A stretch of 64,000 nt of DNA from Escherichia phage phiWec179. Positions within the stretch are counted from its first letter, which is position 1, and the number at the start of each line of letters is the position of its first letter. The stretch lies in sequence record LC739533.1. One strand, written 5' to 3'. Shown in pieces: positions 47,316-55,839 of the stretch. The notes beneath the pieces are model-generated. The model saw only the letters and a program-made list of their open reading frames with translations. It had not been told where the DNA came from and did no database searches. A program made the position numbers and the translations under genes.

Positions 47316-47813
47316 ATGGTACAGACAATTATAGATCGGACTGGTATTGATGAATGTTACCAAACTGGGCTTGTGAAGCCTAACGAGTTCCGACAGATTT
47401 GCGTGAATCATATTGAGAAAGAAATTGCACTAACTTTGGAGAACCTTACTCTCCGAGACAAGCTGTCAATGTTTGTGGCTTGGTGTAAAGGTGAAGATTG
47501 GTTATTGGCCCATTTTCAAGAACTTTCTGATAGTCAAGAAGGCTTATATGAATGTATAATAGGAATAGCTGGCTCCAATCCTGAACTTCTCCATTTGGAA
47601 GAAGAAGAGGCGAAGTTATTGTTCTTAAGCAACATGTTCAATCGTAAAGCATTGCTTGTTCGTGAGTGTAGTGATCTTTTAAATCATCCACTGGCGATCA
47701 CAAACGAAATACTGGTTGACAAAGAGACATTACGTGCGATAGACTATCTGCGCAAGTATGTCAACGGCGGGAAAGCAGTTCTTAAAACATTAACAGAGGA
47801 GGAAGCAGAATGA
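47316..47813 (+). CDS. Hypothetical protein
   Basis: 165 aa; ATGA-coupled to HslV-like gene. Confidence 0.45.
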   Translation: MVQTIIDRTGIDECYQTGLVKPNEFRQICVNHIEKEIALTLENLTLRDKLSMFVAWCKGEDWLLAHFQELSDSQEGLYECIIGIAGSNPELLHLEEEEAKLLFLSNMFNRKALLVRECSDLLNHPLAITNEILVDKETLRAIDYLRKYVNGGKAVLKTLTEEEAE

Positions 47814-48499
47814 CTACAATTATCGCAACCAAAAACAAGATCCTTAGCGACGGTAAAGTAACTTTCGGTGGTCGTGTAGATTCAACCAATTTCAAGAAAG
47901 TACGTAAGATTGGGGATTATCTCGTAGGTGGCGCAGGGCGTTTGACTTCGGTATTAGCTTTCTTCCAGTGGTTCGAACAGAACCTGCAATGTGAAGCGGC
48001 GCGTGAGGCAGTGCCTGGGTTGATGATCAGTTCTAACCCTGATCGTGAAGATGAAGAGTTTATTGCTCTCGTTGTTCACCCAGACGGACGTATTTTCCTG
48101 CATGAAGGTAATGATCCTACTCGTGCATACCCAATCGACGAAGAATACTACGCAGTAGGTAGTGGTTCCGATTTCGCGCTCGCAGCACTGGACGGCGGTG
48201 CTTCTCCAGAAGCTGCTATGGAGGTTGCCAAGAAGCGTGACGCATACTCCGGTGGCGAAACCTTCGTTGAAGAATTAGATGAGATCATTGAACTGACTGA
48301 CGAAGATCTCGAAAACTTCACCAAACAAGAACTGATCAACCTGCTCAAGTTTGGTGATCCTTCTGGTGAAGAAACTCCTCGTGACGTGGCAGGTGACGAG
48401 ACGGTAGAAGAAGAGGTTGCTGTAGAAAAAGACTTGACTTCTAAACCGGAAAATATTAATCTCGTAAACGTAGCGGATTTCGACAATCCCGCTGCTTAA
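47810..48499 (+). CDS. HslV-like N-terminal-threonine peptidase with acidic C-terminal extension
   Basis: After Met: TTIIATKNK (Thr nucleophile position), KKVRKIGD, GGAGRLTS, AVGSGSDFALAAL, collinear with HslV; extra acidic tail. Confidence 0.55.
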   Translation: MTTIIATKNKILSDGKVTFGGRVDSTNFKKVRKIGDYLVGGAGRLTSVLAFFQWFEQNLQCEAAREAVPGLMISSNPDREDEEFIALVVHPDGRIFLHEGNDPTRAYPIDEEYYAVGSGSDFALAALDGGASPEAAMEVAKKRDAYSGGETFVEELDEIIELTDEDLENFTKQELINLLKFGDPSGEETPRDVAGDETVEEEVAVEKDLTSKPENINLVNVADFDNPAA

Positions 48500-51108: not shown

Positions 51109-51842
51109 TTTTATATAAAGAGATTACCGTGGAGCAGGATCAAGACCTCTTCATCATCGGGGACTTACATGGTTGCTACGATCTTTACTTGAAAGGTAAG
51201 AATTATCTTGGTATCCGAGATACAGATGTGGTTGTGTCTCTCGGAGATTTGACAGATCGCGGTAAACAAAACTTCAAATGTGTTGTGGAATTTACACGCA
51301 AAGAGAATCGTTATGCGCTTTGTGGTAATCACGAAGATATGATGATTAAAGGCTTACTGGAAGGGGATCGTCGTTACTACGAATGTTGGTATCAGAACGG
51401 TGGTCATACAGTGTTGGCAGAATGTGATGAAGAAGGCTCTACATTACTTGCTACGATGGTCGAGGACAACCCTGTGGTTTTGGTTGTGAATTACCGAGGT
51501 ATGAAGTTAGGGTTTATTCATGGCGGATATCCTTCCTCTTTTGAATATATTCCGCTGACAGACATACCGCACCTACGTATGAACAAAGCAAGAGAGGCTA
51601 CTTTTGCTGAAGCTTTGATGTGGGATCGTGACATGGTGGAGTGTGCTAAAGAAGGTATGAAACTTCCGGTTGTTATGGGTGTTGATTATGTGTTTCACGG
51701 GCACTCTTATGTGAAAGAACCTTTGATCAATGCTAATCGTGTTTATATGGACACTGGGTCTGTTTTCAATAACAACTTAACGTTTGCCTATTTTGATGCA
51801 GACGGTGGACTTCAGTTTTATTCAACTTTACAGGAGGATTAA
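51105..51842 (+). CDS. PPP-family Ser/Thr protein phosphatase (lambda PPase-like)
   Basis: GDLHG, GDLTDRG, GNHE motifs in canonical order. Confidence 0.7.
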   Translation: MILYKEITVEQDQDLFIIGDLHGCYDLYLKGKNYLGIRDTDVVVSLGDLTDRGKQNFKCVVEFTRKENRYALCGNHEDMMIKGLLEGDRRYYECWYQNGGHTVLAECDEEGSTLLATMVEDNPVVLVVNYRGMKLGFIHGGYPSSFEYIPLTDIPHLRMNKAREATFAEALMWDRDMVECAKEGMKLPVVMGVDYVFHGHSYVKEPLINANRVYMDTGSVFNNNLTFAYFDADGGLQFYSTLQED

Positions 51843-52135
51843 TGTATAAAATTACAATCGTAGAATCTGTGGGTGAGATTCGTAAAGAAATTATTCTGGA
51901 GACGGAAGATCTGGAACTGGTACGTGAAATCATAATTGGTAAGAATGTAGACAAGGTGGAGTCGGACGCACCCAACCTGATGATCGATGACCAATATGCA
52001 GAATTTCGTCGTATTTTTGAGGAAGAAAGGAAGAAGTGGGGCAAAGAACCAAACGTTTTTCGTCCTTATAATCCGTATCCTTCTGGTGATCCGTGGATCA
52101 TGACTAACAGAAACCCGTTTGAAATAACCTGTTGA
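51842..52135 (+). CDS. Hypothetical protein
   Basis: 97 aa; ATG overlaps upstream stop. Confidence 0.4.
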   Translation: MYKITIVESVGEIRKEIILETEDLELVREIIIGKNVDKVESDAPNLMIDDQYAEFRRIFEEERKKWGKEPNVFRPYNPYPSGDPWIMTNRNPFEITC

Positions 52136-52143
52136 GGTGGCCT

Positions 52144-52722
52144 ATGAGCAACCTATTTTACACAGGCGTGGGAAGTCGAGAGATAACCCACGAAGAATGG
52201 GATTTAATGGTCGCTGTAGCAAAGTGGTTGGCTAACTGTGGTTTTACTTTACGTTCAGGTAATGCAAACGGTAGTGACTCTGCTTTCGAAACAGGTGTGG
52301 AAGAATCCAAAAACAAATCTCTCAAGGAGATTTATATCCCTTGGGAGAAGTTTGAAGGCAATGATATTCCAGGTGAGAAAATAGTTCTTGCTAAACCTGA
52401 CAGTATGAACTATGCTATCAGTCTCCAGTGGATAAAGGATATTCATCCGGCATTTGATAAATTGAAACAAGGTGCACGTAAATTGCATCAACGTAACGTT
52501 CATCAGGTGTTGGGACAAGATCTGGAGCATCCAATTCCTTCTTTGTTTTTACTGGCTTGTTCCAAAGAAGATAAGAAGGGAGACGTTATGGGTGGAACAC
52601 GGACGGCGTGGCTCATCGCTAAAGCTAATAACGTTCCATGTTTTAACTTACGTGGTAAAACAAAGGAAGAACTTTATGCTTTTCTTAAACCGTTGGTCAA
52701 GGGGGCAATCAGTGGCAATTAA
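52144..52722 (+). CDS. SLOG / DprA(Smf)-like Rossmann-fold protein
   Basis: GVGSR ... LRSGNANGSDSAFETG ... HQRN ... GGTRTAWLIAKANNVPCF matches DprA/SLOG pattern; start set to ATG 52144. Confidence 0.45.
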   Translation: MSNLFYTGVGSREITHEEWDLMVAVAKWLANCGFTLRSGNANGSDSAFETGVEESKNKSLKEIYIPWEKFEGNDIPGEKIVLAKPDSMNYAISLQWIKDIHPAFDKLKQGARKLHQRNVHQVLGQDLEHPIPSLFLLACSKEDKKGDVMGGTRTAWLIAKANNVPCFNLRGKTKEELYAFLKPLVKGAISGN

Positions 52723-53236: not shown

Positions 53237-53513
53237 TGAAGTGAAAAGTTACGAAAGCAATTTCGTAAGCAATTGGGAAGCATGGGATGAGATGGGTGTT
53301 GGTGAACTCTATTTCTACAATGTAACCCTTCGTCCAGAATATCAACATCTCATTCCAGAAGGCACTGTGCAGATCGGTATGTTCATGTCTTCTCAAGACG
53401 GTGTTGTGCAGTTTGAGTTTTACTCTGACACAGAACAGAACGAATTCACTTATCGTGCATTCAATATCGTATTAGCTTTAGGAGAGGAGAAATTTTATGA
53501 CGACGAAGTATAA
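53223..53513 (+). CDS. Hypothetical protein
   Basis: Start set to ATG 53223 after RBS GAGGAGGAAG. Confidence 0.4.
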   Translation: MAEFNEVKSYESNFVSNWEAWDEMGVGELYFYNVTLRPEYQHLIPEGTVQIGMFMSSQDGVVQFEFYSDTEQNEFTYRAFNIVLALGEEKFYDDEV

Positions 53514-53694
53514 AACAGTAGCAGAAGCACTGAAAGCAGCACACGAAGCCATTGCAGAAGCTGAACAATTGGCTGATGAAACTGGCACAAGTTTTCACTT
53601 CTCTGTTGAATATGGGATGGGTGGTACTTATGACCCAGAAGATGAGAACGAATACACTGGGACCAACTGGCACCCATCTTCCCTCGGTTGTTAA
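53497..53694 (+). CDS. Small Cys-terminated protein, paralogue 1
   Basis: N-terminal alanine-rich helix, Gly/Tyr/acidic core, C-terminal W-x-P-SS-x-x-C. Confidence 0.45.
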   Translation: MTTKYKTVAEALKAAHEAIAEAEQLADETGTSFHFSVEYGMGGTYDPEDENEYTGTNWHPSSLGC

Positions 53695-53708
53695 TAAGGA
53701 GAAATAAA

Positions 53709-53927
53709 ATGAGTGATCGTAATGCACAAGCATTAGCAGACAAAGCAAAAGAAATCATGAAGCTTGTGGATGCACTGGCAGCAGAAGCAGAAAAGGAAGG
53801 TTTCGGTCTTAGCTTAGAAAACAATACAATCTGTTTTGAAGATTGGCAGTCTTCTGCTTGCTATGGCGAAGCTGATGATGGTTTCACCGTTGACTCTGAC
53901 GGTGTTTGGTATAGCAGTAATTGTTAA
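53709..53927 (+). CDS. Small Cys-terminated protein, paralogue 2
   Basis: Same architecture as 53497-53694; ends ...VWYSSNC. Confidence 0.45.
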   Translation: MSDRNAQALADKAKEIMKLVDALAAEAEKEGFGLSLENNTICFEDWQSSACYGEADDGFTVDSDGVWYSSNC

Positions 53928-53936
53928 GGAGGGATC

Positions 53937-54206
53937 ATGTCAGAAGGTAGTGCCTTAATCAAGGCAAAAGTTAAAGAGATGGAAGAATCACAACAGAAGT
54001 TCCGCAACGAGATTGAAGAGCTTTGTGAGCAGTTCCAAGAACAAGCGTGGATCGGTGATTACGGGAATGGGGAAACTTACTACCCAACAGGAACAAACGC
54101 AGAAGAACATTATCTCACCTATATCTGCGGAGACTATGATATTGAGATTGACGAAAACGGTCTGATGACCGAAGGTCTTTGGGTGTCTTCCTCGGAAATG
54201 TGCTAA
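53937..54206 (+). CDS. Small Cys-terminated protein, paralogue 3
   Basis: Same architecture; ends ...LWVSSSEMC; followed by strong terminator. Confidence 0.45.
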   Translation: MSEGSALIKAKVKEMEESQQKFRNEIEELCEQFQEQAWIGDYGNGETYYPTGTNAEEHYLTYICGDYDIEIDENGLMTEGLWVSSSEMC

Positions 54207-54214
54207 TAAATAAT

Positions 54215-54238
54215 AACCCGCTTCGGCGGGTTTTTTAT
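54215..54238 (+). terminator. Rho-independent terminator
   Basis: CCCGC-TTCG-GCGGG followed by TTTTTTATT. Confidence 0.7.
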
Positions 54239-54247
54239 TGTGTGAGT

Positions 54248-54276
54248 GTTGACAAGACACGAAGAACCTGGTAGAC
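54248..54276 (+). promoter_or_regulatory. Sigma70-like promoter
   Basis: TTGACA -35, 17-nt spacer, TAGACT -10. Confidence 0.5.
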
Positions 54277-54305: not shown

Positions 54306-55244
54306 ATGAAAGTATTAATCGGTAGTCGTGCGTTGGAAATGATTTGTCGTTCTCGTGGTGTAGAACTGTATCGTGCTTGCGTAGATCTGGATTACCTCTG
54401 CACTGAAGAAGAGTGGCAAGCAGAAGCCCAGAAATTCTCGAAAGATCGTTTCGTAGAAATTGTTGAACGTAAAGGTAACAAAGGGCATATCAAAATGATC
54501 GCGGGCGCTCATCTGGAATATGATATTGCACAACCAGGCGACTCTACAGATGCTTTGATTCAATACATCAAAGAGAATGCAGATCATCTGCCGCGTATTG
54601 GTTATGATGTGGTCGCGCCTTTGGATGTTTTATACCTTCTGAAGATGAGTCACCGTTTTAAGAAGGACAGTCCTCACTTCCTGAAAACAATGAAGGATAT
54701 CCACTTCATGCGTAACCTTGGAGCGAAGATCCCTGAAGAGTTGGAAGATACATACAAACTGCGTCAGAAGGAGTCCTATAATTACGGGCACCCTAATCTG
54801 AACGTGAAAAGTAAAGATTTCTTCAAGGGTGATGAAGTGCCTTATGTGTATGATCACGATAGCCTGCACAGAGTTTTAGCTGTAATGGAGGAACCAGCTT
54901 ACACGAACTACCTAAAGGATGGTAACGAGGTAATGACAAGTAAAGATAAGTTCTATGCTGTTGACGAAACTACCAGATTGCTTGGGGTGTTAGAGGAGAG
55001 TTTGGTTCTGGCTTCGGAAAGGTGTCTAATACCTTTCAACTACAGTGTTACAGGGAAGAAGGCATTTCTTATGGCTTTGACTAAAGTTTGCACTTCTATC
55101 ACATCGGGCTACTTTCGAGAATATGCTTATGAAAAGTTCTTCCTTGTGTGTAAGGTATACGATAATATGTATCCTAACGACGAGTGGGTGGATACGTTAA
55201 GACAAGCCATAGATAAGGGGGCTGTTGATGTATATAAAGCATAA
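54306..55244 (+). CDS. Hypothetical protein, possible nucleotidyltransferase fold
   Basis: N-terminal LIGSRALEM ... CVDLDYL loosely resembles the GS...DxD signature of Pol-beta-type nucleotidyltransferases; weak. Confidence 0.3.
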   Translation: MKVLIGSRALEMICRSRGVELYRACVDLDYLCTEEEWQAEAQKFSKDRFVEIVERKGNKGHIKMIAGAHLEYDIAQPGDSTDALIQYIKENADHLPRIGYDVVAPLDVLYLLKMSHRFKKDSPHFLKTMKDIHFMRNLGAKIPEELEDTYKLRQKESYNYGHPNLNVKSKDFFKGDEVPYVYDHDSLHRVLAVMEEPAYTNYLKDGNEVMTSKDKFYAVDETTRLLGVLEESLVLASERCLIPFNYSVTGKKAFLMALTKVCTSITSGYFREYAYEKFFLVCKVYDNMYPNDEWVDTLRQAIDKGAVDVYKA

Positions 55245-55839
55245 ATATTTAGGAATCACAGACGAAGACTCCAAAGATGGAGAATTCGTCTACACGATCA
55301 CAGCAGCGAATGGATACTACCAGACCCGTATAGGGGGTTTATGGAGAGCTTTAAATGCGCGGGTAGGTAAGGGATCATACACAAACGTATGTGTAGATTT
55401 TAAAGATTTCAAAGAGTTTGCCGAGAGTGTAACAATATTAGCCAATTATAAAACATTAGATAGTTATGGGAACCACTATCACTTAGATAAAGACTTAAAA
55501 TGTTACAAGAAGGATAAATCTTACAACAAAGATTCAGTGCTGTTTATCCCTGGGCACTTAAATACCGCCTTGAAAGGTGTGATCCCTTACTTGGAGTGTG
55601 GGGCTACTTGTGGAGTCAGTTTTAGTAAGATTCGGAATAAGTTTCGAGCCTACTGTAATGATGGCGGTAGTAGACAGATACATTTAGGGTACTTCGAAAG
55701 TAAAGAAGCTGCTCAAAAAGCTTGGGTATTGGAGAAGATAAATCAAATAAAACGTTCCTTAATCAAAGAGAACATCTCGGACGAAGATATTTTGTATTTT
55801 ACGGGTGTTTTGATAAGCGATTTAGAAGGAGGTTATTGA
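55228..55839 (+). CDS. HNH homing endonuclease-like protein with AP2-like domain
   Basis: GNHYHLDKD ... N ... PGHLN HNH-like core plus FRAYCNDGGSRQIHLGYFESKEAAQKAW AP2-type element. Confidence 0.45.
   Translation: MYIKHKYLGITDEDSKDGEFVYTITAANGYYQTRIGGLWRALNARVGKGSYTNVCVDFKDFKEFAESVTILANYKTLDSYGNHYHLDKDLKCYKKDKSYNKDSVLFIPGHLNTALKGVIPYLECGATCGVSFSKIRNKFRAYCNDGGSRQIHLGYFESKEAAQKAWVLEKINQIKRSLIKENISDEDILYFTGVLISDLEGGY

Follow-up and report, generated by a model that had tools for sequence, protein, structure and literature searches.

The 64,000-nt stretch of Escherichia phage phiWec179 analysed here (sequence record LC739533.1, hereafter the window) contains three adjacent genes, P1, P2 and P3, whose small acidic products end in a tail built on Trp, Ser and Cys. 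Here, we show that the three proteins belong to one family and that members of this family are encoded beside a predicted nucleotidyltransferase (NTase) with the Pfam domains DUF7277 and DUF7275. A sequence-only reading of the same DNA had described the trio and the terminator and fresh promoter that follow it, but it overlooked the most informative feature, which is the obligate neighbour lying beyond these signals. On balance, we think that the small proteins and the adjacent NTase are functionally coupled in one pathway, because their genes are obligately linked.

The linkage was sampled both ways, with loci chosen by the NTase and loci chosen by the small protein. In each of the 19 loci with full-length DUF7277+DUF7275, one or more family members are encoded on the same strand at a distance of up to about 1.3 kb. 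These loci comprise the window, ECO340P2, Tr1, FKP3, four CIP9-like contigs, PEi20 and the metagenomic loci L016-L019, together with 44RR2.8t, Thanatos-1, Moby, BUDD, PHA46 and RB69. Starting from the small protein, an NTase gene is found within about 750 bp in nine of nine loci (RSP15, phiPsa267, Acj9, VR7 and five metagenomic contigs, the gap being at most 550 bp in the latter). Adjacency is therefore complete in the 28 loci (28/28). The genes flanking the pair vary by lineage (nrdD, gp41, dexA, RNR, rIIB and others), and in Moby, BUDD, L018 and L019 the order is inverted, with the NTase gene coming first. Since the flanks differ and the order flips, shared descent of the whole region fails to explain the pairing. 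No other neighbour is universal across the loci compared. We considered two genes as a third component and rejected both: a gene of about 227 codons that follows the NTase gene is kept in Stephanstirmvirinae alone, and a DprA-like gene recurs in only seven loci. The window's copy of the latter (52144-52722, +) encodes a DprA-like/SLOG-type protein (phrog_768, E 2.7e-62); it precedes the NTase gene by four genes and P1 by about 0.8 kb. Thanatos-1, Moby and BUDD also have a homologue no more than 3 kb from the NTase gene. The association is weaker and non-universal. The trio and its neighbour are arranged in the window as follows (lengths in amino acids, aa).

53497..53694 (+): P1 gene, 65 aa, pI 4.4, 'YGMGG' subtype, with the tail W58-H-P-S61-S-L-G-C65
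53668..53691 (+): codons of the P1 C-terminal motif W-H-P-S-S-L-G-C, from the sequence
53709..53927 (+): P2 gene, 72 aa, pI 4.05, with two copies of the motif, one internal and one terminal
53844..53861 (+): codons of the P2 internal motif W46-Q-S-S49-A-C51, from the sequence and an alignment of nine orthologues
53907..53924 (+): codons of the P2 C-terminal motif W67-Y-S-S70-N-C72, from the sequence and the same alignment of nine orthologues
53937..54206 (+): P3 gene, 89 aa, pI 4.05, 'YGNGETYYP' subtype, with the tail W82-V-S-S85-S-E-M-C89
54180..54203 (+): codons of the P3 C-terminal motif W-V-S-S-S-E-M-C, from the sequence and the P3-type alignment
54215..54232 (+), T-run to 54238: intrinsic-terminator-like hairpin AACCCGC-TTCG-GCGGGTT, closing the transcription unit that ends with P3
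54249..54277 (+): sigma-70-like promoter (TTGACA at 54249, 17-nt spacer, TAGACT, TG extension), preceding the NTase gene
54306..55244 (+): predicted NTase gene, 312 aa, DUF7277+DUF7275, beyond the terminator and promoter

The three open reading frames agree with the coding sequences annotated in phage phiWec181, and a strong Shine-Dalgarno sequence stands ahead of each. The lengths of 65 and 89 aa initially read for P1 and P3 stand, but P2 has 72 residues, the 73 first counted having included the stop codon. Between the window and ECO340P2, the orthologues of P1-P3 differ by 0.10-0.17 per non-synonymous site (pN) and by 0.58-0.83 per synonymous site (pS), synonymous sites being near saturation. 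The low pN against a nearly saturated pS shows that these are real genes under purifying selection. Over 2 kb the region matches Escherichia phages phiWec181 and phiWec186 at 100% identity, and some 65 further Phapecoctavirus genomes (Stephanstirmvirinae) at about 75%. In phiWec181, all genes from two upstream to five downstream of the trio are labelled 'hypothetical protein'. The terminator and promoter reported after the trio are indeed in the sequence and are kept at the same place in ECO340P2, Tr1 and FKP3, and the promoter equivalents in relatives read TTGACA...TAAACT, TTGACA...TATACT and TTGACA...TAAACT.

The region also occurs in genomes labelled Pseudomonas phage PsgM04F, Campylobacter phage B15, Dompiswa phage TSP7_1 and an Acinetobacter phage. 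PsgM04F is 95% identical in DNA, and the P1 protein of B15 and TSP7_1 is 81.5% identical, a value that is also that of ordinary E. coli Phapecoctavirus genomes. These host labels call for caution.

Are the three proteins relatives? Pairwise BLASTP among P1, P2 and P3 is non-significant (one comparison without a hit, the others with E 0.016 and E 4.6) and, taken alone, it fails to support the paralogy claimed for them. Profiles do support it. All three match the last third of phrog_899 (positions of about 148-221 of 221; E 6.7e-14 for P1, 2.6e-4 for P2 and 5e-13 for P3), a PHROGs family without functional annotation of which they are members. We then compared alignments built separately for each subtype from relatives in other phages and metagenomes. 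With hhalign, the P1 and P3 types match over their full length (98% probability, E 6.5e-14), the P1 and P2 types match over the N-terminal helix and first strand only (92%, E 5e-7), and the match between the P2 and P3 types is weak (29%, E 6e-4), P2 being the divergent member of the trio. P1, P2 and P3 are thus, as judged from their sequences, anciently diverged relatives within one protein family. The same data contradict the idea of a local triplication. P3 shares 60% identity with a protein from CIP9, a T4-like Enterobacter phage (Karamvirus), whereas with P1 of its own genome it has only a marginal BLASTP match of 20 residues (E 0.016). Since distant phage families contain orthologues specific to each subtype, we regard the array as an old multi-gene cassette.

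What the family shares most visibly is its ending. The tails read initially for the trio are borne out as WHPSSLGC, WYSSNC and WVSSSEMC, which all fit W-x-[SP]-S-[SN]-x(0-2)-C, and among the stop-to-stop open reading frames of the window only P1, P2 and P3 end in W-x(0-3)-S-[SN]-x(0-3)-C. Termination in Cys is by itself uncommon, being found in only 13 of the 334 frames of at least 60 aa in the window. One such protein, of 97 aa (51842-52135, +; phrog_15301; ..DPWIMTNRNPFEITC), is also Cys-terminated; it is without the W-x-x-S motif and is unmatched by the hidden Markov models (HMMs) of the family, and the resemblance is probably coincidental.

From N- to C-terminus, the P1-type consensus consists of an amphipathic helix (..AYxAIxEAExLADExG), a strand F-S-F-S, the segment A-Y-G-M-G-G-x-Y-x-P, a variable acidic linker of about 5-40 residues, and G-W-x-S-S-S-x-x-C as the final residues. 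Residues F33, Y39, G42, G43, W58, S61, S62 and C65 are invariant in 38 P1-type sequences. In nine P2 orthologues from three phage families the invariant residues are D45, W46, S49, C51, G53, F59, G65, W67, S70 and C72, and in the P3-type alignment they are G40, Y42, G45, T47, Y49, G52, G80, W82, S85, S86 and C89. Tail statistics were taken from 162 non-redundant family proteins, 161 of which have the W-anchored motif. The residue at W+3 is Ser in 161/161, with Thr, Ala and Gly never seen, while W+2 may be S, P, A or T. The distance from Trp to Cys is seven in 155 proteins, five in four and six in two. The terminal Cys described as invariant is so in P1-P3 and nearly so in the family at large, where it is the final residue in 157/161 proteins. 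The same tail stands on several paralogues with differing bodies. Given the second copy inside P2, the motif has no strict need of a free carboxylate, and in P2 two motifs may come together.

The AlphaFold model of P1, made from the 38-sequence alignment, has a predicted local distance difference test score (pLDDT) of 86.3, with a helix at 8-29 and strands at 33-38, 41-45 and 58-60. Its tail is less confident (pLDDT of 67 in the last block against 82-95 in the core), the last five residues being the least confidently modelled part. The three proteins of the window are acidic and hydrophilic (pI 4.0-4.4, net charge of -9 to -15, grand average of hydropathy of -0.4 to -0.7). We conclude that the family is one of small, acidic, cytoplasmic phage proteins in which an amphipathic helix at the N-terminus is followed by a small sheet of three strands and by a flexible tail of the form G-W-x-[SPA]-S-S-x-x-C-COOH. 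Lipidation of the terminal Cys, one of the roles first suggested for it, is unlikely, as there is no signal peptide or lipobox and the proteins are acidic and soluble. Lipoproteins and secreted disulfide proteins were rejected more generally, the N-termini being polar or acidic helices without a hydrophobic stretch. The internal head proteins that T4 injects have an N-terminal, MKTYQEFIAE-like capsid-targeting sequence that is cleaved after Glu. We rejected this identity too, since the members in T4-like phages start with MNPKKK.., MSKHKP.., MSVSGN.., MKFEFD.. or MSRELD.. and have no such sequence.

The neighbouring protein matches DUF7277 (E 9e-9) and DUF7275 (E 1.3e-67) in Pfam and phrog_2141, a family without known function, in PHROGs. 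A sequence search of the Protein Data Bank (PDB) with it gave no hit. Its AlphaFold model, based on a 62-sequence alignment, is confident (pLDDT 93.7, predicted template modelling score 0.88). The solved structures it resembles include the ANT(2'') aminoglycoside nucleotidyltransferase (9.9), TglT (9.9), the Megavirus poly(A) polymerase (9.2), TM1012 and a putative NTase of H. pylori (8.9 each), MenT4 (8.8) and the lincosamide adenylyltransferase LnuA (8.7), and MenT1 is its best fold match. Among these nearest structures are enzymes transferring a nucleoside monophosphate (NMP) to hydroxyl groups (ANT(2''), LnuA) or to the 3'-OH of RNA (MenT1/3/4). In the alignment G6-S7 and E71 are nearly invariant and D27-x-D29 is invariant, all placed where the motifs of Pol-beta NTases belong in the predicted secondary structure. 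The protein therefore combines the predicted fold of the Pol-beta group with its hG[GS] motif and its metal-binding [DE]x[DE] motif. Yet its sequence places it in no known NTase family, and none of the 62 homologues matches PF08843 (DUF1814/AbiEii) or PF10127 (RlaP) in Pfam at E <= 1. Hence, the model and the motifs predict a Pol-beta-type NTase that is MenT/ANT-like in fold and not a member of the MenT family.

How might the two components work together? The specific version that we favour, as a tentative proposal, is nucleotidylylation of the tail Ser. The invariant tail would be the element presented to the active site of the NTase, and the Ser hydroxyl at W+3 would accept the NMP. A single NTase would in this manner act on several small proteins of different build, whose activity would be switched in early infection. 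Three observations lead us to this version, as they are more easily reconciled with one enzyme having several clients than with one enzyme having several regulators. The tail is flexible and bears the invariant Ser hydroxyl and the terminal Cys, it is kept on otherwise different bodies, and the genes lie beside an enzyme whose structural relatives move NMP to hydroxyl groups. There is a precedent in MntA-HepT, a type VII toxin-antitoxin system in which the NTase covalently nucleotidylylates a Tyr near the C-terminus of its neighbour. The logic would be the same for the pair in the window, with a Ser as the proposed acceptor in place of the HepT Tyr.

Several points weigh against this picture. 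The Pol-beta NTases known to modify proteins (GlnE, DrrA, MntA) use Tyr and not Ser. Three divergent homologues of the NTase, which matched over only part of the query and come from Streptomyces, Gordonia and Vibrio K408 phages, show no recognisable family member close by. The terminator and fresh promoter between array and NTase gene, in the window as in its close relatives, imply that the two are not always co-transcribed. The profile with which the family was collected contains the motif, and part of the uniformity of the tail is thus due to selection of the sequences, although a Ser that never varies is still striking in such an alignment. Finally, the RNA-related genes found in some loci point to an RNA substrate, in which case the small proteins would be regulators or bystanders.

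This RNA context can be described further. Several lineages have RNA ligase (RnlB, Rnl1), polynucleotide kinase or tRNA genes at a distance of a few kb from the NTase gene (L012 7803-8825; L018 968-2065; L029 1467-2114; L024 19-948; L025 1-684; L021 3953-4100). RNA ligase genes at such a distance are found in RSP15, L018 and L029, and repair neighbours of the RNA ligase or kinase type are near the DUF7275 gene in these three loci and in PHA46 and BillNye. No RNA ligase annotation is found within 6 kb in the phage of the window, nor in most other loci. The gene context hints at an RNA-end function of the NTase.

The closest alternative is nearly as likely as modification of the tail Ser, and we consider it possible although somewhat doubtful. 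The small proteins would be antitoxin-like or regulatory subunits that contact the NTase with the tail, with the acidic face of the N-terminal helix, which is conserved, or with both. Binding would keep the enzyme inactive or retarget it, and its substrate would be RNA, e.g. tRNA 3' ends. The analogy is with MenT1, the best fold match, which is controlled by MenA1, a protein of 68 aa encoded just upstream whose N-terminal helix induces inhibitory auto-phosphorylation of MenT1 (PMC7450476, PMC11375011). The frequent vicinity of RNA ligase, polynucleotide kinase and tRNA genes would also suit an RNA substrate, as in RlaP, which adds one or two NMP to damaged RNA 3' ends (bioRxiv 10.64898/2025.12.29.696909; PMC7824862). 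However, P1-P3 have no sequence or fold similarity to MenA1 or to any solved antitoxin, and the homologues of the NTase are all outside PF08843/DUF1814 (0/62). A single regulator would be expected to be enough, but 1-6 diverged paralogues are kept. Conservation is strongest in the tail and not in the helix, and in some phages the small genes are downstream of the NTase gene. Moreover, the site of the phospho-acceptor T39 of MenT1, two residues before the first catalytic Asp, is a Cys in the window and an Asn in T4-like phages, i.e. it is not conserved.

The organisation of the module resembles that of other systems pairing an NTase with a small partner (MenAT, AbiE, MntA-HepT), yet it lacks what defines membership in them. 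With 0/62 homologues in DUF1814/PF08843, the NTase is not of the MenT/AbiEii toxin family, and P1-P3, having neither sequence nor fold homology to MenA1 or AbiEi, are not these antitoxins. Relative to MenAT1 and AbiE, each enzyme has here one to six paralogous partners with a W-x-x-S...C tail, which MenA proteins lack. The module is found in virulent phages whereas those systems are in bacterial chromosomes, and in the window its genes are separated by a terminator and a promoter. MntA-HepT was rejected as an identity because the partner lacks a HEPN fold (Pfam) and the R-x(4-6)-H motif, P1 having no Arg at all. ANT(2'') and LnuA have antibiotics as substrates and no detected sequence similarity to the phage NTase. 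The C-terminal domain of the latter, DUF7275, is also much larger and is peculiar to the phage family. RlaP, a Pol-beta NTase of bacteria and phages, is frequently encoded close to genes for RNA ligase and kinase repair enzymes, but none of the 62 homologues matches PF10127, and the accessible part of its descriptions mentions no small Cys-tailed partner.

A second alternative, which we consider unlikely, is that the small proteins act independently in host takeover or anti-defence, as acidic mimics of nucleic acids or as oligomers whose paired tails bind a metal or a nucleotide, with the NTase gene merely co-selected in an accessory cassette. The strong acidity of P1-P3 (net charge of -9 to -15) would suit this, as would the two motifs per chain of the P2 subtype if tails pair. 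The separation of the array from the NTase gene by a terminator and promoter in the window goes in the same direction. Copy number varies, as is typical of arms-race loci, and the arrays lie in early-gene accessory regions beside candidate counter-defence genes (NARP1-like genes in Acj9 and K408, a sirtuin, a phosphatase). But adjacency in 28/28 loci, in both sampling directions and in varied contexts, is hard to explain without a direct functional tie, and there is no match to any PADLOC model or known anti-defence protein. A host-interaction or counter-defence role, which the sequence-only reading had proposed for the trio, is no more than plausible.

As to these neighbours, genes resembling phosphoribosyl pyrophosphate (PRPP) synthetase and nicotinate/nicotinamide phosphoribosyltransferase lie 1-3 kb from an NTase homologue in two unrelated phages (Acj9, L014 8763-11417; Vibrio K408, L027 1-2160). 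They are akin to the NAD+ reconstitution pathway NARP1. In the phage of the window, a CobB sirtuin gene lies about 3.6 kb downstream (L001 11119-11919).

It is very improbable that the tail is purely structural, with its Trp buried in the sheet, its Ser acting as a cap and its Cys incidental to an ordinary small phage fold: odd conserved motifs are frequent in small phage proteins and AlphaFold puts W58 in strand 3 of a confidently predicted mini-domain, yet a structural Ser would sometimes vary to Thr, Asn or Gly instead of being kept in 161/161 proteins, packing does not explain a C-terminal Cys in 157/161 diverse sequences, and the last five residues are the least confidently modelled.

Returning to nucleotidylylation of the tail Ser, one can speculate on its outcome. 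In this bolder form, which is a long shot, the DUF7277+DUF7275 protein would be a protein-directed NTase placing NMP onto the tail Ser of the whole set of small proteins. The product might be a stable conjugate of protein and nucleotide, directed against the host. Or the NMP might be eliminated to give dehydroalanine, whose attack by the terminal Cys would close a lanthionine-like C-terminal ring. If true, either product would be a new post-translational chemistry in hundreds of virulent phages, including RB69. The S-S-x-x-C tail formally fits the core of a lanthipeptide or other ribosomally synthesised and post-translationally modified peptide (RiPP), but the body is predicted to be folded (pLDDT 86), which is unusual for a leader peptide. 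No LanB/C, LanM, LanKC/L or other known RiPP maturase is among the scanned neighbours. Pfam and PHROG scans of these neighbours gave a DprA-like protein, a phosphatase, the NTase, an HNH endonuclease and unknowns, with no Lan or radical-SAM enzyme.

The module is widespread among large virulent phages. With tblastn the NTase gene is found in 735 phage records, among them T4-like phages, Phapecoctavirus therapy candidates, phages of Acinetobacter, Aeromonas, Pseudomonas syringae and Ralstonia, and jumbo phages. The small proteins are encoded in hundreds of these, and both genes are 'hypothetical' almost everywhere. Searches for P1-P3 in Pfam, NCBIfam and PADLOC gave nothing meaningful, and those of the literature for DUF7275, DUF7277 or the RB69 gene names found nothing relevant. 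In none of Pfam, PHROGs, NCBIfam, PADLOC, the PDB and the searchable literature is a function given for either family. For phrog_899, which is devoid of annotation, neither the libraries nor the papers searched record the tail motif, the subtypes or the linkage to the NTase. A strictly linked enzyme and set of small proteins could reveal a new protein modification, a phage form of NTase toxin control, or a further level at which tRNA or the host is manipulated early in infection. The presence of the module in RB69, a genetically tractable model phage, makes it directly testable.

Copy number varies among related phages. Within Stephanstirmvirinae it goes from three in the window and in ECO340P2 to four in Tr1 and five or six in FKP3, and elsewhere from one to five, i.e. 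from one to six copies across T4-like and other large virulent phages. Tr1 lacks the P2 type and has two long members of 140-150 aa. CIP9-like phages and Edwardsiella phage PEi20 have P3-, P1- and P2-type genes and up to two further types in one array. One to four members each are found in VR7, RB69, Aeromonas phage 44RR2.8t, Shewanella phage Thanatos-1, Stenotrophomonas phage Moby, Xanthomonas phage BUDD, Ralstonia phage RSP15, Pseudomonas phage phiPsa267, Acinetobacter phage Acj9 and the Salmonella jumbo phage PHA46. T4 itself has no family member, and neither the small gene nor the NTase gene is present between its e.5 and nudE. An exhaustive HMMER search of 1.84 billion representatives gave 47 relatives at E < 1e-3, and a profile search of a larger collection gave 242 clusters with no informative name (except for one stray, unrelated label).

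Some arrays show further particularities. In RB69, ORF134c is the NTase gene and ORF136c and ORF137c are intact family members, while ORF139c (..GDYGSGRTYYPKGEIVSQWYEK*) and ORF138c (..ITEGAWVSSPALC) resemble one P3-type gene split by a frameshift or stop (NC_004928 9735-10041, minus strand), either a pseudogene or a sequencing error. ECO340P2 has an unrelated gene of 91 aa (L002 2467-2742; ..EEYCEAYHGSFDGTEKELDFAYERIDQIRCAIKHLKEASMWACRSVFQPEEKY) between its P1 and P2 orthologues, which is present in many Phapecoctavirus genomes and absent from the window. A very short subtype of 52-65 aa, with the helix and one hairpin and ending in W-[RQ]-S-S-S-Y-[DQ]-C, occurs in Justusliebigvirus and T4-like phages (e.g. 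FKP3, L004 1090-1248, and L006 5301-5498). It falls below the HMM thresholds yet has the full tail, and may be the minimal module of the family.

Two other genes of the window deserve mention. The 3' end of the NTase gene is overlapped by a gene for a 203-aa protein of the HNH/AP2 homing-endonuclease type (55228-55839, +; phrog_953, E 1.6e-25, with a weak Pfam AP2 match). This gene looks like a mobile insertion, because ECO340P2, Tr1 and FKP3 have nothing equivalent at this place; a relative directly follows the NTase gene in the metagenomic L017. Further upstream (47810-48499, +), a protein of 229 aa starting with MTTIIATKN matches the Pfam Proteasome subunit family (25.5 bits against a gathering threshold of 22.4), and the phage would here encode an HslV/proteasome-beta-like protein that is extended at its C-terminus by an acidic segment.

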